Part shown: positions 798 through 36,762 of the stretch, in pieces
Layout of the letters: every line of letters starts with the position of its first letter
How positions within the stretch are numbered: position 1 is the first letter of the stretch
From: a virus
Taxonomy: Duplodnaviria > Heunggongvirae > Uroviricota > Caudoviricetes
Virus record (IMG/VR): IMGVR_UViG_2711768004_000012
Direction: 5' to 3' (one strand)
Length of the DNA: 48,520 nt
Program-made: the position numbers and the translations under genes
Notes under the pieces: model-generated
The model's database searches: none
What the model was told of the DNA's origin: nothing
Seen by the model: the letters and a program-made list of their open reading frames with translations, nothing else

Positions 798-3685
798 TAT
801 GCAAGCCTCACAATATAGTTAAATGCGATGTTTTTGACGGTGTTTTCCGCGTTACCAGCAGCGTTAACGGTGATGGTGTGTCCATGTGAACCAATCGCAA
901 CGGAGTGCGTATGAGCACCAATACCGACAGTATGCGCGTGTGCACCTGCAGATGCTGCTGTGCCGGACAGTGAATGGCTATGATTACCATCTATACTGGT
1001 ATTCGCTAACCACCCCGTAGACATACCTACTGAGCCTTGTACACCCCAGGTATTTTGACCTGAGCTTGTATAACCATATTGATAAGTATCTTTAAAAACA
1101 CTGGGGTTAAATCGACGGCCATCTCTATGGCTGTGATTACCAGCTGCATTCGTGCTGCCACTTAAACTATGGGTATGCGCACCAGTGTTATTCGTGGATT
1201 TAGTGCCGTAATCAAACGACGATGTGGTTTTCGTCCCCAAATCCGTACTGGATGCGCTGGCGCTGTGGGTATGCGATTTAATGCCGTCCTGTTCCTGAGA
1301 CAATACGGCCCGACCACTGGCAGGTTTGCCCTTAATCGTCCAGCCACGCATATCAGGGATCACGCCTGACGGATAAGCCGCTGCAAGTTTCGGGTATGCA
1401 GATTTGTCAAAAGCCTGCCCCTGCATCAGGGCATAGCCAGACGGAACGGTATCTGATGGCCACGGGATTGGTGCGCCAGGCGGATAAAACTGCTCTGATG
1501 GCGTATAGAGTGAATAAACTGTACCGTCCGTTAACCCTTCCGGCTTATTAGCAGAATATGCTGGTGACGTATGAATCGTCACGCTGGCATTACTGGTATA
1601 ATCCCATTGAATATTTACACCAGTCGCATAATTTCCGATTGCAACGTAAATATCGTAAGTATCACCAGATGTATTAACCCAGGCAAAATTTGTAAACCCT
1701 GTCAATGTGCGCTGCCATAAAGCACCAGTAATCCCCTTCGGATTACCATTACCTGCACGTAAAACAAGTTCAGATATACCTGCCTGTTGAGGTGACCCCA
1801 CGTTAAATCCAGCGCCACCAATCAACGTAATTGAAACAACAGAACTCGCCTGTGGCATGGTTACCGTTGCTAATTTGAACCAACCAGCACCACCGCTGAA
1901 TGACATTGTTGTTGAGTTAAGCGTACCAATATCTTTCGGCGTCAGTGTTATATCCGCTGAAAGCGCCTTACCATTCACCTTACGGGCAGAAGGTACCCGA
2001 CCATTCGCATTGTCATTAGCTGCTTTCACTGCTTTCGGTGTCGCAGCAAGCGTTTCAGATGTGCTGTTGGTTGCACTACTGAGCTGGACAATTCCTTTTT
2101 GTGCTGTCGTAGCGTCCTGTGCGGTGTATTTCCCGTTAGCCAGGTCATACGCGGCCTTAACGGCTTTTGGCGTTGCCGCCTGTGACTCGGAAGTGCTGTT
2201 AGTCGCACTGCTGAGCTGAACTATCCCTTTCTGTGCTGTCGTTGCATCCTGTGCGGTGTATTTCCCGTTAGCCAGGTCATACGCGGCCTTAGCTGTCTCG
2301 GCGCGCGTTGCCGCGGATTCCGCCGTACTTTTGCTCTGTGCTGCCGCTGCCGCACTGCCAGCAGCCTCTGTCGCCTTCGTGGATGCCGTCGTGGCGCTGC
2401 CCCTCGCTGCTGACGCCTGTCTGGTCGCCTCATCTTTTGAAGCAGACGCAGATGATGCCGATGACGCCGCCGAACTGGCGGACGATGCGGCAGCCGTTTT
2501 TGAGGATTCTGCGCTGGTTTCCGACGCTTTCGCGTTCGTTTCGGATGTCTTCGCTGCGGAAGCAGACCTCGCTGCTGCGCTGGCCTGTTCAGTGGCTTCG
2601 CCAGCCTTCGTTGTGGCTGTTGAAGCGGATGATGCGGCGCTTTCTGCCGATTTTCCGGCGGCGGTGGCACTGACTGCTGCCTCCTCTGCCTTAATGGACG
2701 CCTCACGGGCCGATGATGCAGCTGCTGTCTCAGAGTCTGCCGCAGCTGAGGCGCTCTGTTCCGCTGCCGTTTCAGAAGACTTAGCATTCGTCTCGGACGT
2801 TTTTGCCGCCTTCACGGAATTTCCTGCCGCCGTTGCCGAGGAGGCTGCACTGCTGGCGCTTGTGGAGGCGTTCGTTTCTGATGATTTTGCCGCCTCTTTG
2901 GAGGCCGCCGCATCTCTGGCTGAAGTGGCGGCTTCTGACGCTTTCGTTGTCGCNNNNNNNNNNNNNNNNNNNNNNNNNNNNNNNNNNNNNNNNNNNNNNN
3001 NNNNNNNNNNNNNNNNNNNNNNNNNNNNNNNNNNNNNNNNNNNNNNNNNNNNNNNNNNNNNNNNNNNNNNNNNNNNNNNNNNNNNNNNNNNNNNNNNNNN
3101 NNNNNNNNNNNNNNNNNNNNNNNNNNNNNNNNNNNNNNNNNNNNNNNNNNNNNNNNNNNNNNNNNNNNNNNNNNNNNNNNNNNNNNNNNNNNNNNNNNNN
3201 NNNNNNNNNNNNNNNNNNNNNNNNNNNNNNNNNNNNNNNNNNNNNNNNNNNNNNNNNNNNNNNNNNNCAGATGTGCCGGCATCACTGGCTGACTTCTTCG
3301 CGGCTGCCGTGTTCTGTGCCACCGCGGACGCGTTACGCGCCACCTCTTCCACCATCAGTTCAAAACGGCGCAGAGCCTCCGGACGGGCATCATCCTCCGT
3401 CATGGCACCGAGAAAATCATTCAGCGTACCGGGTCGGGAATCTTCATACACAGTGATGGTCCCGGCATGTGACGGCGGGAATCCTTCCACCAACAGAATA
3501 ACGCTGTACTGACCGTACTCAACGTCCATGCTGTAACGCCCGGCTTCATCCGGATTTTCTGAGGCCAGCGTGTTCACCACCACCGTGGTGCTGTTACGTT
3601 TTGCTTTCAGCTGGATTGTGCAGTTCTGTACCGGTTTTCCTGTGCCGTCTTTCAGTACACCTGAAATCTTTACTGCCATATTCAC
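797..3685 (-). CDS. stf: Side tail fibre protein (Stf-like); interrupted by N run 2954-3267
   Basis: 962 aa ORF; N-terminus [29 protein letters not shown] resembles lambda Stf; long Ala/Ser/Thr-rich central region; C-terminal His/Gly-rich receptor-binding region; followed by tfa. Confidence 0.8.
2040..2300. repeat. Direct tandem repeat inside stf, period about 132 nt (2 copies), encoding a duplicated ~44 aa block
   Basis: Nearly identical DNA, e.g. gtgctgtt...cccgttagccaggtcatacgcggcctta at 2061-2160 and again 132 nt later; protein shows [35 protein letters not shown] twice. Confidence 0.8.
2954..3267. other. Run of N (masked/undetermined, 314 nt) inside stf
   Basis: Literal n characters in the sequence. 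Confidence 1.
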
Positions 3686-3717: not shown

Positions 3718-3743
3718 GTCATAACACTGTGTTACCTGGCTAA

Positions 3744-3908
3744 TCAGAATTTATAACCGACACCCACGATGAAACCGTCAGTGCGCCAGTCGCCACTGCC
3801 GGAGCCTTCATAAGCAATATCAATGGCCACGGATTCGGTCGGGTTAAACTGCACGCCAGCTCCCCACGCCAGAGACGTGTTGCTGTGGCGACCGTCATCA
3901 CTTCCGGT
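3744..3908 (-). CDS. lom: Lom/Ail/PagC-family outer membrane protein, 3' end only (5' part lost in N run)
   Basis: Reverse translation of 3744-3908 gives ...TGSDDGRHSNTSLAWGAGVQFNPTESVAIDIAYEGSGSGDWRTDGFIVGVGYKF-stop, a beta-barrel C-terminus ending in Phe like lambda Lom; position between J and stf matches lambda. Confidence 0.7.
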   Translation of the reverse strand, partial: TGSDDGRHSNTSLAWGAGVQFNPTESVAIDIAYEGSGSGDWRTDGFIVGVGYKF

Positions 3909-4491
3909 NNNNNNNNNNNNNNNNNNNNNNNNNNNNNNNNNNNNNNNNNNNNNNNNNNNNNNNNNNNNNNNNNNNNNNNNNNNNNNNNNNNNNNNNNNNN
4001 NNNNNNNNNNNNNNNNNNNNNNNNNNNNNNNNNNNNNNNNNNNNNNNNNNNNNNNNNNNNNNNNNNNNNNNNNNNNNNNNNNNNNNNNNNNNNNNNNNNN
4101 NNNNNNNNNNNNNNNNNNNNNNNNNNNNNNNNNNNNNNNNNNNNNNNNNNNNNNNNNNNNNNNNNNNNNNNNNNNNNNNNNNNNNNNNNNNNNNNNNNNN
4201 NNNNNNNNNNNNNNNNNNNNNNNNNNNNNNNNNNNNNNNNNNNNNNNNNNNNNNNNNNNNNNNNNNNNNNNNNNNNNNNNNNNNNNNNNNNNNNNNNNNN
4301 NNNNNNNNNNNNNNNNNNNNNNNNNNNNNNNNNNNNNNNNNNNNNNNNNNNNNNNNNNNNNNNNNNNNNNNNNNNNNNNNNNNNNNNNNNNNNNNNNNNN
4401 NNNNNNNNNNNNNNNNNNNNNNNNNNNNNNNNNNNNNNNNNNNNNNNNNNNNNNNNNNNNNNNNNNNNNNNNNNNNNNNNNNNNNNNNNNN
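3909..4491. other. Run of N (583 nt) covering the J 3' end and lom 5' end
   Basis: Literal n characters. Confidence 1.
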
Positions 4492-7400
4492 TTTTGGTCA
4501 CAATCACCGTACAGTCGGTGATATTGCCTGCCCCCTGATTGCCTTTCTGGAAAATCTTAAACTCCAGAGTGACGCTACCACCACCACTAGGCATATCAAT
4601 AACTGCACTGTAACTACCGGGAATGGCCCCTTTAGTTTCTCTGGATGCGATTAATACGCCGTTTTTGCGAACTTCAAAACCATAACCCGTGTATCGCGTG
4701 CCTCCTGGGTTATTTCCGCTCCCCGGATCGTCATACGCTATACCGTTAAAAATAATGGGCGGAATAATAATCTGGCGGTCAAAGTTATGATCATCGCTGA
4801 TGGTGACTGTAACCGTACCGTCTGGTGTTTCCGTGTTACCCCACGTACCGACTTTTTTCGGGAAGGCTTTTGATACAGCTTTAACGAAATCCCCTCTGAC
4901 CTGGGTCGCCTCCAGCATGCCCTTAATCGTACAGTTCTGGTTAATCGTGACATTGTTGAGCGTTCCTGAGTTCGCATTCACACTACCACTGATATCCGCA
5001 TTTTTAGCGGTCAGCTTTCCGTCTGATGTCAGGGAAAATACCGGAGGACTGCCACCGCTGGTAATGGCGGGGGCTGTCAGGCGCTTCAGGAACACGTCGT
5101 TCATGAATATCTGGTTGCCCTGCGCCACAAACATCGGCGTTTCATTCCCGTTTGCCGGGTCAATAAACGCGATACGATTGGCGGCAACCAGAAACTGGCT
5201 CAGCTTGCCTTCCTCCGTGTCCTCCATGCTGAGGCCAATACCCGCGACATAATGTTTGCCGTCTTTGGTCTGCTCAATTTTGACGCCCCACATCGCATTC
5301 CATTTATCGTTAGCGTCCTTCCACTCTTTCGAAAACTCATCCAGTCTGCTGGCGTTATCCTCCGTCAGATCAACTTTTTCCAGCAGCTCTTTACCGAGAT
5401 GGGATTCGGTTATCTTGCCTTTGAAAAAATCCAGGTAACCTTCCGCATCATCGCTCGCCCGACCGACGGCCTCCACGAATGCCGATTTGCCAACGGTGTT
5501 CACACTGCGGATATAAAAGTAATAATCATGGCCCGGTTTGATATTGATACTGGCGGCTATCCAGTACAGCCCCGCGCCAAGGTAGCGGGCTGTGGTTTCA
5601 ACCTGCCTGATATCGGTAATCCGCGTTTCCGAGAACCAGAACTCAAACTGTACCGTCGGATCATAAACCGCAAGATGCGGCGTGGCAGTTATCTGAAAAT
5701 AGCCCGGCGTCAGCTCAATCCGCGACGGTGCTACCGGTGCGGCAATCCTGAACGATACCGACGCCGGATCGCCCTGCTGTCCCCAGGCATTTACCGCCCG
5801 GACTGTCAGCGTGTACCGTCCCAGCGCCAGTTGCGTGAAGCGGTATGTGGTTTCCGTCGTCCGGGCCGTGCTGACCAGCCGCTCACTGCCGTCATCCGCT
5901 GCCACGGTCAGGCGAAGCATAAAGCTCACCCCCTTCACCACCTTCGGCGTGTCCCAGCGCGCCAGCACCTGATATTCCCCGCTGTCTGCGGTGACTTCGG
6001 CAGTCAGGTGCTGCACCGCTGGCGGCGTGACACCATTCACCGTGCCGCTCTGGTCGCCGTCAAAGTGCGCCCCGTTATCCACGATGGCTTCTTTTTCCGG
6101 TACATGCTGCACGGCAGTGATGGCATACGTGCCGTCATCGTTCTCACGGATACTCACACAGCGGAACAGGCGCTGGCGCAACGTCGGCAGCTTCAGCCCC
6201 CACACGCTGTATTCAGCAACGCCGTCAGGAACACGGCTCACTTTCACCTTCACGCCGTCGGTGACGGACTGAACCTCCACGCTGACCGGATTGCCACTTC
6301 CGTCAACCAGGCTTATCAGCATGGTACCGGAGGATGGCAGCGTGATTTCACGGTCGAGCGTCAGCGTCCGGGTCTGGCTGTTTACCGCCAGCACGCGCCC
6401 GCCGATGCTGATACCCGCATAGTCATCATCACAGATTTCAATGACATCGCCCGGCACATGGCGAAGCCCTTCTGCGCCCACGCTGAAGTCCACGGTCTGC
6501 GTTTCCAGCAGTTCTGTTTTAATCAGCCACAGCCCGGCGCGGTGTGCCTGCCCCCGGCTGGTACAGCCAAAAGCATCCATCTTCGTGACGTTACGACCGT
6601 AACGGGCAATGGCCTGCGTATCCTCCACAAGCTCTGTCGCCGTCTCCCAGCCGTTATCCGGGTCAATCCAGTTCACCTCAACGGCATTATGGCGGTCNNN
6701 NNNNNNNNNNNNNNNNNNNNNNNNNNNNNNNNNNNNNNNNNNNNNNNNNNNNNNNNNNNNNNNNNNNNNNNNNNNNNNNNNNNNNNNNNNNNNNNNNNNN
6801 NNNNNNNNNNNNNNNNNNNNNNNNNNNNNNNNNNNNNNNNNNNNNNNNNNNNNNNNNNNNNNNNNNNNNNNNNNNNNNNNNNNNNNNNNNNNNNNNNNNN
6901 NNNNNNNNNNNNNNNNNNNNNNNNNNNNNNNNNNNNNNNNNNNNNNNNNNNNNNNNNNNNNNNNNNNNNNNNNNNNNNNNNNNNNNNNNNNNNNNNNNNN
7001 NNNNNNNNNNNNNNNNNNNNNNNNNNNNNNNNNNNNNNNNNNNNNNNNNNNNNNNNNNNNNNNNNNNNNNNNNACACCAGGCCATGTTGTTGCTGTATGC
7101 TGGTTTTAACGTTCCGTCCCAGATACCGCTGTATTGTCGCGTCTGCGGGTTATAGTTCGACGGCACCTGCAGAATGCGCCCGCGAAGATGATAATTACGA
7201 CTCACCTGCTGGCTGCCGAACTGCTCCGAGTCCACCTGTACGCCGACCAGTGCAGTGTTCGGGTAGCACTGTTTCACATCGATGATTTCGGTGTATGACG
7301 ACCAGAGCGTTTTGTTCTGCAGCTGGTCTGTGGTGCTGTCCGGTGTCATCCTGCGCATCCGGATACTGAACGGGCGCGGAGGCAGGTTATCCACCACCAC

Positions 7401-7898
7401 CGAGACCAGATACTGCGAGGTGGTTTTGCCCTTAATGGTGATGTCTTTTTCCGTCACCCAGCCACCGTTACGCTGTATCTGAACCAGCAGGCGGACTTCC
7501 GACGGATTCCTGTCTCCCTTTGAGGTGGTTTCCACCAGTGCCTGTACACCGAAGGTAAAGCGCAGACGGTCGATGTTTGCCGACGTGATGGTCCGGGTGA
7601 TCGGCGTGTCATATTTCACTTCCGTACCCAGCACCGTCTCGGAGCCGGAGGATTCAAACCCCTCCGGCGGTGACTGCTCCTGCTCACCTGCCCGGAACAC
7701 CACCGTGACGCCGGAGATGTTGGTATTCCCCTCATTGTCCAGCACCGGCGTACTGTTCAGCAGCACGCTTTTTAATCCATCCACCGGACCTTCAACCGGC
7801 CCTTCACTGATGGCATCGATCACACTCAGCAGCTGCGTGGACTTCAGGTTGTCCTTCGCTTCGCGCGGGGTATGCCCCTTACTGCTGCCTTTACCCAT
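4492..7898 (-). CDS. J: Host specificity / central tail fibre protein J (3' end in N run; also interrupted by N run 6698-7073)
   Basis: N-terminus [34 protein letters not shown] matches lambda J; large continuous ORF across the region in two frames separated by a frame-breaking N run. Confidence 0.85.
6698..7073. other. Run of N (376 nt) inside J
   Basis: Literal n characters; length is not a multiple of 3, so the frame is not preserved. Confidence 1.
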
Positions 7899-7958
7899 TC
7901 CTCACGCTCCATAAACGACAAAACCGCCCGCAGGCGGTTTCTCATAAAACATTTTGCA

Positions 7959-8567
7959 TCAGCGACCAATCACCACAACCTGACCACCATCCCCTTCGTC
8001 TGCCGTGCTGATCTCCTGAGAAACCACACGTGACCCCACGCGCATTTCCCCGTACAGAACAGGCAGAACATTACCCTGGGCAACCATGTTATCCAGTGAC
8101 GAGAAATACGTGTTCTGTTTGCCGTTATCTGTACTGGCTGCCGTGGGCGTCCTGGCTTTCGGTGCCAGCATCTGCGCCACACCACCCAGGATCATACTGG
8201 CCCCTGCTGCATACATACCCGATACAGCCGCGGCCCCCAGCCAGCCCACAGGGTTCCACCATGCCACCGCAATCAGCGCCGCACCCAGCACCGCCTGAAA
8301 CACACCGCCACTTTTGGCACCCGCCAGACGCGGAACGATGTGGATCACGGCACCATTTGCCAGCGGTTCATTAAGACGGGCAGATAATTCATTTTCGCCT
8401 GCATCACGCCCGGCAATGCGCACCTGATACCAGCCGTCGCTCAGTTTCTGACGAAATGCCGGGAGCTGTGTGGCCAGTGCCCGGATGGCTTCGGCCCCCG
8501 TTTTCACACGAAGGTCGATGCGGCGGCCAAATCGCTGCAAATCCCCGTAAAGGCAGATGCGTGCCAT
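7959..8567 (-). CDS. I: Tail assembly protein I
   Basis: 202 aa ORF MARICLYGDLQRFGRRIDLRVKTGAEAIRALATQ..., Gly/Ala-rich hydrophobic C-terminal half, located between K and J as in lambda. Confidence 0.8.
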   Translation of the reverse strand: MARICLYGDLQRFGRRIDLRVKTGAEAIRALATQLPAFRQKLSDGWYQVRIAGRDAGENELSARLNEPLANGAVIHIVPRLAGAKSGGVFQAVLGAALIAVAWWNPVGWLGAAAVSGMYAAGASMILGGVAQMLAPKARTPTAASTDNGKQNTYFSSLDNMVAQGNVLPVLYGEMRVGSRVVSQEISTADEGDGGQVVVIGR

Positions 8568-8590
8568 GCCCGGTGACGCCAGAGGGAGTG

Positions 8591-8678
8591 NNNNNNNNNN
8601 NNNNNNNNNNNNNNNNNNNNNNNNNNNNNNNNNNNNNNNNNNNNNNNNNNNNNNNNNNNNNNNNNNNNNNNNNNNNNN
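8591..8678. other. Run of N (88 nt) at the K/I junction
   Basis: Literal n characters. Confidence 1.
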
Positions 8679-9304
8679 TCTCGTTTACTCAGTTGTTCAG
8701 GAATATGGTGCAGCAGCTCGCCGTCACCACAGTAAATGGCGGCATGATTCGGCACCGATGAACCAAAACAGCACAGCAGCACATCGCCCGGCTGCGCCGT
8801 TGACAACGGCACCTGATACAGCCCTGTAGCCTCCAGATTATCCAGATAGAGATTCTGACCATTACGCCACCAGTCGTCCTCACGATGAAAATCTGGCATC
8901 TCAATTCCCGCCAGATGGTAAGCGTCCCGGAACAGCGTGTAACAGTCCGTCACCCCGTGCTCAAAGCGCCGCCCGGTGAGATGCGGCACACAGCGGAACT
9001 TGTGAATCGCCCCGCGGCAGACCAGCCACCACGACAAATCACTCTGCACCTGCAGCCGCCGGTCGGCCTCACTCAGCCAGGGCAGACCACCGGGGTGGCT
9101 GTGGACCAGCGCCACAATCTCACCCTGCATCTCTGCCTGCAGCCAGTCCTCCGGAGCCATCCGGAAATACTCCTCCGGCTCACCGGAGATATTCACGCAG
9201 GGAAAATATCTTTCCCCCTCCGGTGTTCTCACCACGAAGCCGCACGACTCCGCTGGCGCACATCGCCGGGCGTGCGCCAGAATCGCTGATTCTGTCTGTG
9301 TCAT
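8679..9304 (-). CDS. K: Tail assembly protein K (JAB/MPN + NlpC/P60-like); 3' end in N run
   Basis: MTQTESAILAHARRCAPAESCGFVV...ALVHSHPGG (MPN-like HSHP motif) followed by a Cys-containing C-terminal domain ...VTDCYTLFRDAYH...; lambda K-like; sits between L and I. Confidence 0.8.
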
Positions 9305-30339: not shown

Positions 30340-30936
30340 TTTTCCTCACATATGTCATATAGTAAAGGATTATATATACCGTTGTTTTGGACGCTCAAAC
30401 AGCGAATCAGATCAAATAAAACGCACATTTGTTAACATTTACACAAAGTCTGCGTGGGATATTCTGAAAGAATATCCATAATGTGGAGAGAATCTATTGA
30501 AGTGCATGGTGCCGGGTGCCTCCCGGTGAACAAAATGTTCGTGATACCTGTCGGCGACAGAAAAGGTTAATGGTATCACCCCACCGCACAGGGGGATTCA
30601 CCATGCAGGAGTTTTCTTAGCAAACTCACTGCGCGCCCGGCAACTCCCAACCACATAAAATGCGGAGTTTGTGGCATTTATGCATATAACTCGCAGGAAT
30701 TATCTTAAAAAACTGATGTCGATCCGGATTAAAAAGAAGCAGGTCATCATCAGATGACTGGAAAAAAGGAAAACAAAAAATACTCATCATACAGTTTTGA
30801 TTGCAGGGATGAGCCTGCTATGCACAATATGCAGAATATAAGCAAGATAAAAATATGCAGGCATATTATTTCGGATCTTGTTATTAACACAACCTTTTTA
30901 ATAATCATTTGGCATACAATAAACCAGCCCAAAAAG

Positions 30937-32812: not shown

Positions 32813-33092
32813 TTCTCAATCTCTCGATGGCGCAGCGCAGCAGATGCCAGTTGTTCAGGCTGACGAATAAAGTATAAATAAACTGGCTATGGTGTAAAGC
32901 CCCACATAGCATGAACAAACACTACATATCAAATAGCTGGTACAAGGATAGAAATACGACACTTATTATTAAAAACGATTAGATAAATTACATTTTAATG
33001 TTATGCAAAAGTTCTTTTTTATCATAACATTTCAATAAAAGCATTACAGATGCAATCATCCCGTCATCATCAATTATTTAAGGTGGTTAAAC

Positions 33093-33179
33093 ATGGAAAA
33101 TAACAAGTTCGCACATCTCGCTCCTTTTTTATCCGTAATCCTTTTCGCTTGTTGTTTTATATGGGCATTATTTTTATAA
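33093..33179 (+). CDS. Candidate small hydrophobic peptide (28 aa) MENNKFAHLAPFLSVILFACCFIWALFL
   Basis: ATG preceded by strong SD AAGGTGG at 33080-33086 with 6-nt spacing; single predicted TM helix; inside the AT-rich island. Confidence 0.35.
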   Translation: MENNKFAHLAPFLSVILFACCFIWALFL

Positions 33180-33587
33180 AGTAGCCACATGATAAGTTGC
33201 TGGAATCATATTTCCCACTCAAGTCATTAACATTTGATAAGATATATCTAAAAGGACGCCTTTACATTATTTATGCGTATATAATTTATTTATATACACA
33301 GTAAAGGTATCCTGGGAAAATATTTATCGTTAAAAAATACATCATAAATAATTAAGCTGAAATTTCAGAACACAACTAATACACACAATAAGGTTCAGTA
33401 ACAGTAATCTATGTGGACTACATCGAGATTTTTTGATTAAACTTTAATAACTTATTCCTAACACACAGAATGCATAAACTAAAAGTAAAACAAATAGTTA
33501 TACGAAAAACAACCATATTTATTCTATCTTCTCCTCTAATCAACATATCAATTATGTGTTTCATAACAGCTTGACATAACCCTCCAA

Positions 33588-33610
33588 AAGATGCATTTTT
33601 AATGCATGTT
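33588..33610 (+). promoter_or_regulatory. NsrR-type operator-like inverted repeat upstream of the yeaR-like gene
   Basis: aagATGCATttttaATGCATgtt: first half AAGATGCATTT is identical to the NsrR half-site consensus as I recall it; ATGCAT-based 11-1-11 palindrome; a perfect TTGACA lies at 33571-33576. Confidence 0.5.
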
Positions 33611-34031: not shown

Positions 34032-34584
34032 TAAATATATTGGTTCTACATTGACAGGAGACTTCAACCATAAGAAGTAATCTGAATACTTGAGCAATAA
34101 ATTTACTTAAGATTAATGAGCGCACCTTGCCGGACAAAGATAAACCAAGGTAACACCTTTTTTCTAGCCAGTATGTAATCAATCAGAAAGCCGCTCCATA
34201 AGAACAACAGCAAGACAATAAATTGCCATTACAGCCGCAATAGCCAGCGCACATTTGAGAACCAGCACGACAACCCCCTGTATTAGACGCACACCAGTCC
34301 TGATAAATATGAGGCTGTCTCGTCAGTGATTCAATACAACTATTGGGTATAGTTTCTGTGATTTTATTCTGTAGAAATGGAACACAACAACCAGTCACCA
34401 CCAGCACTTCCTTAAATGCTCTAAGTCAGAAACAAGCCAACATTTTAGTCCGCTTTGAGCGATCTGCAGACATTGCTAGCAGCCTTCTGTGTGAATTCTC
34501 AGGGAGCAGGTCGGCATAGCATCACGTTGAGGCTCTTACCCTACTTGTTCACACCAACCCTAACTCCACAGACTGATTCATAAA

Positions 34585-35586
34585 TTAGTAATCTGCGTGT
34601 TTCGCACTTTTCAGAAATGCTTTCATATTTTCATTAGGTCGCTCAATTTCGAAGTTACTTCCATATAACTCTTGTAATTTTGGCCATAACTTACTTAATA
34701 ACCCTCTCCTGCGATAAAATGGATGTATCCAAACGGTAGATAGGTACGGAGAATTTGCATTTGAATTGTTTATTGTGACCAGCCCAACTAAACATTGTCG
34801 ATAACCACTATTATCCATTGATTGTATTTCTTCGACGAATGGATACGCGATTACATCAGTCCAACCATGATCGGTTGTATCCCATTGCATTCCGTCATGA
34901 CATTCCTTCGACTGATAGCGGCGTAAAGCTACACACGCGAGCTTTTGCCAATCTGGAGAATTAATTGTGATCTCTTCATCGTATGACGCGCCTATTGGAG
35001 CGGGTATTGGTCTGATTAATCCAGCATGGCATTCATCATAGAACTTCATGTTTCCCTCAGAAACGTTGTGTACGTTGGGTTGCTCCATGTGTGCGCCATT
35101 CAAAAATAGCTCTGATAGTAGTGTATCTACACTGTAATCTTTATTGATTATTGTCGGCTTAGAGTTTTTCTTATTAAGGCCGCGAGTAACGATTTTTTGA
35201 TCAATGTTAACAACATGGAATAATCCGTCGGGGAGGCTAGCGAACCACGATGGGGCATCGGACCAGAATAGCATGCCTTTTGTACTTCTTAAGAGTTTAA
35301 TTAAGTTAATACAAGCTTCTTCACTAGTCTTGCCGTTGATGCGAAGTATGTTAGGACTAAAGTAATATTCATCCATATCAGGGAATGCAGCTTCGCAAAA
35401 CTCCTGTACATAATTTAGCACCTGGATTCTACAGAGATCATCATAGCTGGTAATAACTAAGGGGGTATCTTCATTACTATTATGATTATCAATAATGCAA
35501 TCTATAGCGAGACTTACTGCTTTGCGTATCACTTCAGTTGAATCTAACGACTCTAAAAATTTTGTCTTTCGTGTGCGAATATCCAT
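34585..35586 (-). CDS. Hypothetical protein with GNAT-like acetyltransferase C-terminal domain
   Basis: 333 aa; C-terminus ...CLVGLVTINNSNANSPYLSTVWIHPFYRRRGLLSKLWPKL... fits GNAT motif A (beta strand then R-x-x-G-x-hydrophobic); AT-rich; 15 nt downstream of the preceding gene (operon). Confidence 0.5.
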   Translation of the reverse strand: MDIRTRKTKFLESLDSTEVIRKAVSLAIDCIIDNHNSNEDTPLVITSYDDLCRIQVLNYVQEFCEAAFPDMDEYYFSPNILRINGKTSEEACINLIKLLRSTKGMLFWSDAPSWFASLPDGLFHVVNIDQKIVTRGLNKKNSKPTIINKDYSVDTLLSELFLNGAHMEQPNVHNVSEGNMKFYDECHAGLIRPIPAPIGASYDEEITINSPDWQKLACVALRRYQSKECHDGMQWDTTDHGWTDVIAYPFVEEIQSMDNSGYRQCLVGLVTINNSNANSPYLSTVWIHPFYRRRGLLSKLWPKLQELYGSNFEIERPNENMKAFLKSAKHADY

Positions 35587-35601
35587 GTATGACCTGCGCT
35601 A

Positions 35602-36562
35602 TTAAAATTCATGAATGAACGGTTTGTCATCTGGTTGCAAAATGGTGGTTTTATTCGTTGCTACATTTAAACTGTTGTAGAGCATAATTGCCAGGTTCGA
35701 TGCATTTTCAATCAGCGTTTCAAGATCCTGGTCTGTAATCACTACGAGGTTCCCTTCTTTATCCTTTCCACCACGATGCACTAAGTGATTTCGATTGAGG
35801 GTTGCCAATTCAATAGCTTCTATCGGACAGTCTTTTTGTACTTTTATATCGAATGTAGCTTCATAGCGGTCGATTACCTTTTTAGTGCTATGCCAGCTTG
35901 CACTGATCAAGTGTTCCTTGATTGACCTGATTAGCTCTCCCCTAATTTTCTCGATGGGTTCACCCTTGAAAGGCAACGCAGCAATATCTTTGCTTACTTT
36001 AAATTCAGTCTTACCTTTTTCTATACAATTGGCTATGTAGACATCATCTTTCTCTATAGAATTAATGAATAGCTCAACATAAAGCGTTTCCAAAGCTGTA
36101 ATAACATTCGTGTAGAGCAAACTAAGCAAGTGGTTTTTTTGCTGTTGTTCAGTTTTATCTTTTGCAAGTTTTTTTATTTTATCGATATTATCAATGAATT
36201 TTAAATACGGATTACCGGAAGACGTTACAGCGTCGTAGATATCATCATCGTACCAATCATCTATATTATTTGAGTTTCCAGACCAGTCAAAACATTGTGT
36301 TTGTAATTCATCTACTAATTCCTCAATATACTCAGATTTAACATATTGACCGAAGATGGATTGTAGTTCTTCGCTCGCATCATACGGCCCGCCATATATG
36401 TAAGCATAGCCACCTTCTCTACTTTCATACGGACAAGCATTTGCCGGATCTTCAAAGTTTTCAAAGAACCAGTTTTTCATTACTTCGAGTTGATCTTTTT
36501 TGCTTATGTATTTTAAAGATTTTAGTGGAACTTTCTTTCCATTAACCTCGAAAACAATTTTC
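35602..36562 (-). CDS. Hypothetical protein with HEPN-like R-N-x3-H motif (probable GTG start; ORF track extends to 36693)
   Basis: About 320 aa; C-terminal region ...ELATLNRNHLVHRGG... contains R-N-H-L-V-H (Rx4H); SD AAGGGAG before GTG AAA ATT; AT-rich; first gene of a two-gene operon. Confidence 0.45.
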
Positions 36563-36762
36563 ACGATGTAACGCTCCCTTGTATCAATTGCGCAACTATT
36601 ATACCACAGCGAAATACAGGGCATAACCTGCCTCCTTAAACTAACATACCATGAGCCAGCAATGTCCGCTATTGGCACAAAGCGGACAACCACGCTAGCT
36701 CTCCCCTGTGCCAGAAAAATGTCAATTTACATATGAACTAATGCTCTTTGATCTAGTAACGT

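Follow-up and report, generated by a model that had tools for sequence, protein, structure and literature searches.

A HEPN-GNAT gene cassette in a Rac-type prophage of Escherichia coli is the anti-phage system DS-33 and joins two autonomous genes

Two adjacent genes in a prophage, one encoding a HEPN-like protein and the other a GNAT-like protein, raise the question of whether they form an unnamed two-component defence system, as suggested by an original prediction made from the sequence alone. The genes lie in a stretch of viral DNA of 48,520 nt (hereafter, the window), which we identified as a complete Rac-type prophage of E. coli. Its right side carries the integrase gene, xis, ralR, recT, recE, racC, kilR and sieB. 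On the minus strand, the replication genes ydaU and ydaV are followed by DUF1627 and DUF977 genes, and nin-like, lysis and structural genes are found farther to the left. The RefSeq copies of this prophage are located at ttcA. The cassette itself has the replication genes (ydaU/ydaV/DUF1627/DUF977) on one side and the nin-like genes (DUF1367/DUF1364/DUF1133) on the other.

As predicted, the cassette consists of two co-directional genes on the minus strand, the upstream gene A (35602-36564, stop codon included; 320 aa; PHROG 17908) and the downstream gene B (34585-35586, stop codon included; 333 aa from an ATG; PHROG 16994), and the 15-nt gap between them (35587-35601) is exact. The mechanical open reading frame of A extends from a GTG at 36693 to 35602. 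Because every aligned homologue starts with MK(I/V)VF and the RefSeq protein (WP_014639476.1) has 320 residues, we took the GTG at 36564 as the true start; a 340-aa version from an in-frame ATG at 36624 with an AGGAGG, used in some annotations, was dropped in its favour. The cassette end originally given, 36562, was accordingly 2 nt short. The cassette had also been described as much more AT-rich than its flanks. The difference is real, with a GC content of 0.378 compared with 0.454 in the whole window, 0.47-0.53 in the replication genes on the right and 0.41-0.42 in the left flank, but it is only moderate: 7% of 2-kb windows are as low in GC or lower (7th percentile), and the region at 32813-33601 (0.305) lies below the cassette.

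The short spacer between A and B, which has the same offset in approximately 50 paired loci, implies an operon with close coupling. The intergenic region upstream of A (36565-36762, minus strand) contains a TTGACA at 36720-36725 without a convincing -10 element, and a promoter scan returned no site in 36565-36762; the cassette may therefore be read through from the early operon. Two terminator-like hairpins occur downstream of B on the minus strand (34190-34244), with a scan count not above chance, and the counts of promoter and terminator scans around the cassette as a whole were likewise not above shuffle expectation. Rfam and tRNA scans detected no element in or beside the cassette.

The proposal that this slot is a variable cargo site was borne out, since identical flanks hold other genes in other E. 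coli strains. The cassette was carried by 201-205 of 5,426 complete E. coli genomes, while the DUF977 flank was found in thousands. In genomes that retain both flanks, the alternative cargo included a RelA/SpoT-domain gene matching the PADLOC candidate PDC-S33 (E 5e-119), a LysR regulator with a cyclase, and an IS3 element with a gene for a 269-aa hypothetical protein. The left junction of the slot (34151-34465) is conserved, with partial matches in genomes carrying other cargo that start at query positions 167-183 and extend to about 480. In a Megablast search against deposited phage genomes, the DUF977 flank was the only match.

The cassette proved to be already known. Protein A is identical to DS-33A (WP_014639476.1) at 320 of 320 residues, the GTG-encoded initiator aside, and protein B is identical to DS-33B (WP_000354965.1) at 332 of 333, the sole difference being proline in the window versus leucine in the published protein at residue 289. 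DS-33 (working id GNAT) was taken from an E. coli prophage (NZ_QOWT01000046.1, 6922-8901) and is marked "defensive = TRUE" in Table S6 of DeWeirdt et al. (DefensePredictor, Science 2026, PMC13092281). Its published gene coordinates, 6922-7884 and 7900-8901, give the same gene order and the same 15-nt gap. The original prediction had recognized no named system of this composition; the name in fact exists, but DS-33 is not discussed by name in the main text of PMC13092281, and the literature match comes from its supplementary tables only. Because DS-33 had been found, named and tested earlier, the cassette adds little as a discovery.

The published phenotypes (PMC13092281, Tables S6 and S7) establish that the cassette is an anti-phage module, as had been proposed. 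Protection by DS-33 spans 2-6 logs against T7, T3, Bas67 and Bas26, and the first screen gave 4.7 for Bas26, 3.0 for T7, 3.5 for T3 and 2.3 for Bas67 (PMC13092281). Table S7 reports log10 protection in MG1655 with two replicates per construct. Wild-type DS-33 gave 3.78/2.60 against T7, 3.30/2.40 against T3, 4.0/1.98 against Bas67, 5.0/5.9 against Bas26 and 0.77/0.08 against T5, and the corresponding values for ΔHEPN were 0.08/-0.30, -0.48/0, 0/-0.18, 0.52/0.30 and 0.54/0.08 (PMC13092281). The substitution of the Rx4H arginine, one of the checks suggested for the cassette, was among the published constructs and abolishes defence: R258A gave 0.78/0.46 (T7), -0.30/0.30 (T3), 0.52/0 (Bas67), 0.74/0.43 (Bas26) and 0.37/0.30 (T5). 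In ΔGNAT, protection was 4.78/4.30 against T7, 3.30/3.30 against T3, 4.0/3.30 against Bas67, 5.0/4.9 against Bas26 and 1.73/0.55 against T5 (PMC13092281). The published genetics thus make the HEPN gene necessary, and sufficient with B deleted, and make R258 essential. In Table S8 of the same study, the DefensePredictor log-odds are 9.45 for A and 1.08 for B, and DS-33A has a remote HHblits match to PD-T4-2_B (probability 96.1, coverage 0.55).

The Rx4H motif of protein A, R258-N-H-L-V-H263 (35776-35793, minus strand), lies within a HEPN domain spanning approximately residues 119-308 (35641-36210), in which the four-helix up-down HEPN fold was found. R258, H263 and R264 (RNHLVHR) are invariant across 56 homologues, which supports the predicted HEPN identity of the upstream protein; this conservation of its Rx4H site, judged from the alignment, is far beyond a chance motif match. 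Further invariant residues in the same alignment are E159 and W224-H225, together with P45, G58-G59-P60, F71 and W94 in the N-terminal domain. This domain, approximately residues 1-115 (36220-36564, minus strand), corresponds to HEPN/RES-NTD1 (Pfam PF18870), a computationally defined, largely helical domain of roughly 100 aa that occurs in fusions with HEPN, RES and other effectors (Anantharaman et al. 2013, PMC3710099). In A itself, PF18870 scored E 1.9e-4 and 22.2 bits, under its 27.4-bit cutoff. In a Pfam survey of 40 aligned homologues, down to 25% identity, it matched all 40 at E up to 0.01 (best E 1e-6). HEPN_RiboL-PSP (PF18735) matched 19 of the same 40 homologues (best E 1e-9), and the A protein of the window had no match to it. 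The Ribo L-PSP-HEPN family, likewise defined by computation, retains Rx4-6H and has AbiD and AbiF as distant relatives (PMC3710099). In the genome scan, the N-terminal domain of A also matched proteins with other C-terminal regions (loci L055-L081), and it is presumed to be a sensor or regulatory module. No PADLOC 2.0 system was assigned to A, the best hit (E 0.009) being to an unrelated PglX model; NCBIfam gave no match for A or B, and sequence searches of the PDB with the cassette proteins gave none.

Protein B comprises two parts. The prediction of a GNAT fold was correct for its C-terminal part, approximately residues 180-333 (34588-35049, minus strand), in which Acetyltransf_1 is a borderline Pfam match at residues 264-311 (19.9 bits against a cutoff of 20.7). 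The motif-A-like segment, W286-I-H-P-F-Y-R-R-R-G-L-L297 (34696-34731, minus strand), contains P289, and none of W286, H288, P289 and R292 varies among 38 homologues. Aligned with motif A, R/Q-x-x-G-x-G/A, the segment reads R292-R-R-G295-L-L, where G295 is kept in 31 of 38 homologues and the last G/A is replaced by L, M or K. The closest structural neighbours of the domain are the protein-lysine acetyltransferases HAT1, MYST, ATAT-2 and ESCO1, at a weak Foldseek E of about 1e-3. In a profile search of 1.84 billion representatives, residues ~180-330 also turned up as independent proteins about 160 aa long (E 1e-37 to 1e-20). The N-terminal alpha/beta domain, approximately residues 1-175 (35062-35586, minus strand; AF2 secondary structure), had no Pfam or PDB profile match, and in the same search it was recovered only in full-length family members or fragments. 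The B family has 38 invariant positions and is under strong purifying selection, and B had no PADLOC match.

To what extent A and B belong together was assessed from their distribution. With the A alignment as query, a scan of representative genomes, one for each species, gave 79 loci with relatives of A, and B was absent from 76 of them. B adjoined A only at loci L002 and L003, where A is at least 98% identical, and A stood alone in Aeromonas taiwanensis and Yersinia alsatica, at 75-77% identity. All-against-all clustering of the flanking open reading frames in the 79 loci revealed no recurrent neighbour family of solo A. A Pfam survey of 100 neighbours of solo A was heterogeneous, with some Peptidase_M78, ResIII, DUF4238, AbiJ_NTD3 and integrases, and a search around solo A genes with an HMM of B uncovered no distantly B-like partner.

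We also scanned metagenomes, viral contigs and look-ups with the B alignment. B proteins of at least 73% identity were preceded by A (at least 83%) at the fixed offset in approximately 50 loci; one such pair, from Aeromonas caviae, is located in a mobilisable element with a relaxase, beside a SIR2 gene. B proteins of up to 56% identity, from Marinomonas, Shewanella and marine metagenomes, were always solo, and a B of 86% identity occurred without A in three loci. In a neighbour-joining tree of B, the paired state forms one derived clade within which solo B is nested twice, and all basal B genes are solo. A single origin of the pairing, in an Enterobacterales/Aeromonas clade, was followed by at least two separations (locus L151 and loci L103/L150). 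It is confined to that one clade, and the two genes do not co-occur across the range of their families. Solo B genes were found beside a full-length PD-Lambda-4_A (L150), a PDC-S06/PrrC-like AAA_13 ATPase (L122), Abi_2 (L085), a P4-type primase (L151) and a HerA-like ATPase (L125), the contexts at L085 and L122 being chromosomal and non-phage.

These results do not support the implied HEPN-GNAT partnership: defence is intact or stronger without the GNAT gene, and relatives of both A and B each occur solo. A and B are autonomous units that came together a single time and have for the most part not parted since, which explains the published ΔGNAT result. Because ΔGNAT still defends and the two families occur apart, we conclude that the cassette is not an obligate two-component system: the defence is a single HEPN gene, to which the GNAT gene is accessory. 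On the evidence of the published ΔGNAT construct, B is an accessory gene that is not needed for the tested defence. It is not an antitoxin in the usual sense, since the ΔGNAT strain grows and defends. Nor is it neutral in the published construct, in which T7 protection rose by 1.0 and 1.7 logs when it was deleted. This gain and the retention of B beside A leave room for a modulatory role. The pair has been kept, with the same spacer, down to 83% identity in A and 73% in B and in both prophages and a mobilisable element, suggesting some shared selection.

The cassette is thus very probably DS-33 carried as cargo of a prophage slot, with A as the HEPN effector and B co-transcribed but not needed. 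In the mechanism that we propose, A is the working part, and its C-terminal HEPN domain with R258/H263, by analogy with its family, would act as a metal-independent RNase. The N-terminal HEPN/RES-NTD1 domain most likely holds the nuclease off until infection is sensed, as may be expected from related proteins. Infection by T7-like and some other phages would then release the RNase, which would cut RNA and stop phage production. B belongs to an autonomous gene family and most likely serves as a modulator or as separate cargo.

The single substitution between the window and the published system complicates the reading of B. Each of the 38 aligned homologues has proline at position 289, as does each of 78 fetched loci. 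A 55-mer with the proline codon was present in 209 complete E. coli genomes, and the same 55-mer with the single-step leucine codon was present in none. The residue is part of W-I-H-P-F-Y-R-R-x-G, the counterpart of GNAT motif A. Because the published B carries L289 at a position that is otherwise proline, the dispensability of B was tested on an atypical allele. Judging from this conservation, the published tests of B, namely ΔGNAT and ΔHEPN with B alone, may have been made on an impaired protein, and "dispensable" is therefore unproven for the P289 allele of the window. The P289/L289 observation is a new caveat.

Several other explanations for the presence of B were considered. B may be a second, independent defence gene directed against phages outside the tested panel, which would make the cassette a two-gene mini defence island. 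This is somewhat unlikely, although the neighbours of solo B include known or candidate defence genes (L150, L122, L085, L151 and L125), the family is under strong purifying selection with its 38 invariant positions, and the N-terminal domain of its own gives B the usual sensor-plus-enzyme layout. The low DefensePredictor log-odds of B (1.08 versus 9.45 for A) and its lack of a PADLOC match argue against it, as does the failure of ΔHEPN, which keeps B, to protect against any of five phages; this last result weighs little because the B tested was L289.

We regard it as unlikely that the adjacency has no functional meaning and that two unrelated hitch-hiking genes have merely not been separated. 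The autonomy of both families and their separation on at least two occasions (L151; L103/L150) fit such an explanation, but the pair has outlasted 17-27% divergence of its proteins and moves from one element type to another, its spacer unchanged, and ΔGNAT alters the level of protection.

Another explanation is that B serves the prophage, either as an early acetyltransferase acting on a host or defence protein or by shielding the prophage's own lytic growth from A. A precedent for such an acetyltransferase is the GNAT anti-CRISPR AcrVA5. Standalone GNAT homologues of B do occur right after phage replication genes, a position equivalent to that of the cassette, as in one phage genome (L161) with the order ERF, DUF669, DUF3987, standalone GNAT and terminase, and the closest structural neighbours of B are protein-lysine acetyltransferases. 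However, this structural preference is weak (Foldseek E of about 1e-3) and solo B is also found in the chromosomal, non-phage contexts noted above, and we consider the explanation improbable.

The allele caveat leads to a further reading, to which we likewise give little credence: that B with P289 works as an acetyltransferase and modulates the HEPN defence, and that its published dispensability reflects a crippled L289 allele. Such an enzyme would acetylate, for example, A or the RNA or protein target of A, and would thereby set the threshold at which the defence fires or spare the lytic cycle of the prophage. If this were true, DS-33 would be a HEPN effector under acetylation control, an arrangement that we did not find in the literature searched.

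Finally, an obligate, toxin-antitoxin-like pair, in which the GNAT protein acetylates and so restrains the HEPN RNase, or activates it, as MNT does by AMPylation, is very unlikely: the tight operon with a 15-nt spacer fixed over approximately 50 loci and across element types, the ΔGNAT gain of 1.0-1.7 logs against T7 and up to 1.3 against Bas67, as expected of a brake, and the chance that the tested B allele is a hypomorph speak for it, but the strain without the GNAT gene is viable and retains defence, 76 of the 79 loci with relatives of A have no B, among them those with the 75-77% identical genes of Aeromonas and Yersinia, B lacks A in all basal lineages and in the nested 86%-identical ones, and the pair contains no MNT, RHH or other antitoxin-type domain.

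How DS-33 relates to known systems can be considered gene by gene. TacT, AtaT, ItaT and KacT are the GNAT toxins of GNAT-RHH modules, and B has in common with them and with AcrVA5 a GNAT fold in conflict systems on mobile elements. A GNAT-RHH module of the TacAT type was rejected for the cassette because the upstream gene encodes a 320-aa HEPN protein without RHH or DUF1778 and because B, at 333 aa, has an extra domain. A HEPN-MNT toxin-antitoxin system was also rejected, since no minimal nucleotidyltransferase antitoxin lies adjacent. Compared with type II/VII systems of that kind, the neighbour here has a GNAT fold and no NTase domain, the partner is dispensable, and A is about 2.5 times larger with an N-terminal domain of its own. 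In the abortive-infection proteins AbiD/AbiF/Abi_2, AbiJ and AbiU2, each encoded by one HEPN gene, and in DS-11 (CBS-HEPN), phage defence comes from one polypeptide that combines a regulatory N-terminal domain with a HEPN RNase whose catalytic R and H are essential, a layout presumed for A as well; their N-terminal domains differ from that of A.

Subunit B of PD-T4-2 (Vassallo et al. 2022) is a RiboL-PSP-HEPN protein and a remote homologue of the HEPN half of A, and both are anti-phage genes of E. coli. They differ in that A contains HEPN/RES-NTD1 and B has no PADLOC relative, and no PADLOC model of PD-T4-2 matched A or B at E up to 1. The architecture of A was predicted by computation among the HEPN/RES-NTD1-HEPN proteins of PMC3710099, in which Klebsiella KPK_1764 serves as type example for the N-terminal domain; there, the domain is paired with a MAE_28990-type HEPN, whereas the HEPN half of the A family scores as the RiboL-PSP type. 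The HEPN/RES-NTD1 domain of A could also provide a tractable model for N-terminal control of HEPN, RES and other effector domains.

The closest comparison is DS-33 as published, which is the same system, with A identical, B one residue apart, the same order and spacer, and dependence on HEPN and R258. The difference is that B in the window carries P289, the family consensus, whereas the published allele carries L289. The mechanism, distribution and evolutionary independence of the two genes are not discussed by name in PMC13092281. Our analysis adds the evolutionary autonomy of A and B and a map of their distribution, which covers Rac-type prophages, an Aeromonas mobilisable element and sites beside PD-Lambda-4 and other defence genes.

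The slot holding the cassette, a variable cargo site after the replication genes, carries other genes in related prophages. About 300 nt of non-coding sequence on its left side (window 34151-34465) was kept across prophages with very different cargo and looks like the left recombination junction of the slot. Two terminator-like hairpins were found on the minus strand within this segment (34190-34244), a count not above chance. In E. coli CH4793, a RelA/SpoT-domain protein of 341 aa (positions 2052-3077 of the fetched locus L158) lies between the same slot flanks and matches the PADLOC candidate PDC-S33 with an E-value of 5e-119. The same slot is occupied in another strain by a LysR regulator with a polyketide cyclase (L160), and in yet another by IS3 with a hypothetical gene of 269 aa (L159).

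B, the GNAT-fold gene, also occurs apart from A, the HEPN gene. On an IMG/VR contig (L150), a solo B that is 86% identical occupies positions 8001-9002, with a full-length PD-Lambda-4_A gene (3736-7329; PADLOC E = 0) approximately 670 nt upstream. Other defence systems may also be travelling companions of B. At another locus (L155, 7644-8606; protein P0148), a chimeric ORF of 320 aa joins residues 1-120 of the DnaC-like YdaV in frame to residues 133-333 of B. This chimera is a deletion derivative, in which the beginning of B is gone along with DUF1627, DUF977 and A.

The complete pair was carried on a relaxase-bearing element in Aeromonas caviae (L082-L084, 6221-8293), where it is adjoined on the opposite strand by three genes (SIR2-domain, cREC_REC and one of 239 aa) that may constitute a further defence module. 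In E. coli NZ_CP084096.1 and NZ_CP073936.1, the cassette region is broken by IS2 and ISSen4 insertions. A 100% identical E. coli cassette was also present on a 3.3-kb contig in a MAG labelled Collinsella sp., which is almost certainly a binning artefact.

Left of the cassette, window 32813-33601 has the highest AT content in the vicinity (GC 0.305); it contains no ORF of at least 110 aa and no Rfam match, and is unannotated in RefSeq copies. Because related prophages carry hokD, a type I toxin gene, at the corresponding position, this region may conceal a small toxin or sRNA locus. Separately, a full-length match to the gammaproteobacterial sRNA STnc100 (Rfam RF02076, 86.6 bits) was located on the minus strand at 30450-30636, within the prophage between nin-like genes and the lysis region.

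For A, an in-frame ATG at 36624, within window 36565-36693 and preceded by AGGAGG, leads certain gene callers to a 340-aa version (cluster P0001, 769 member sequences). We rejected this start, since homologues establish GTG 36564 as the conserved one. A 55-mer that spans codon 289 of B (window 34720-34722) carries the Pro codon in 209 complete E. coli genomes, and its counterpart with the single-step Leu codon was found in none. All 78 fetched loci specify Pro at this codon; the published DS-33B allele specifies Leu.
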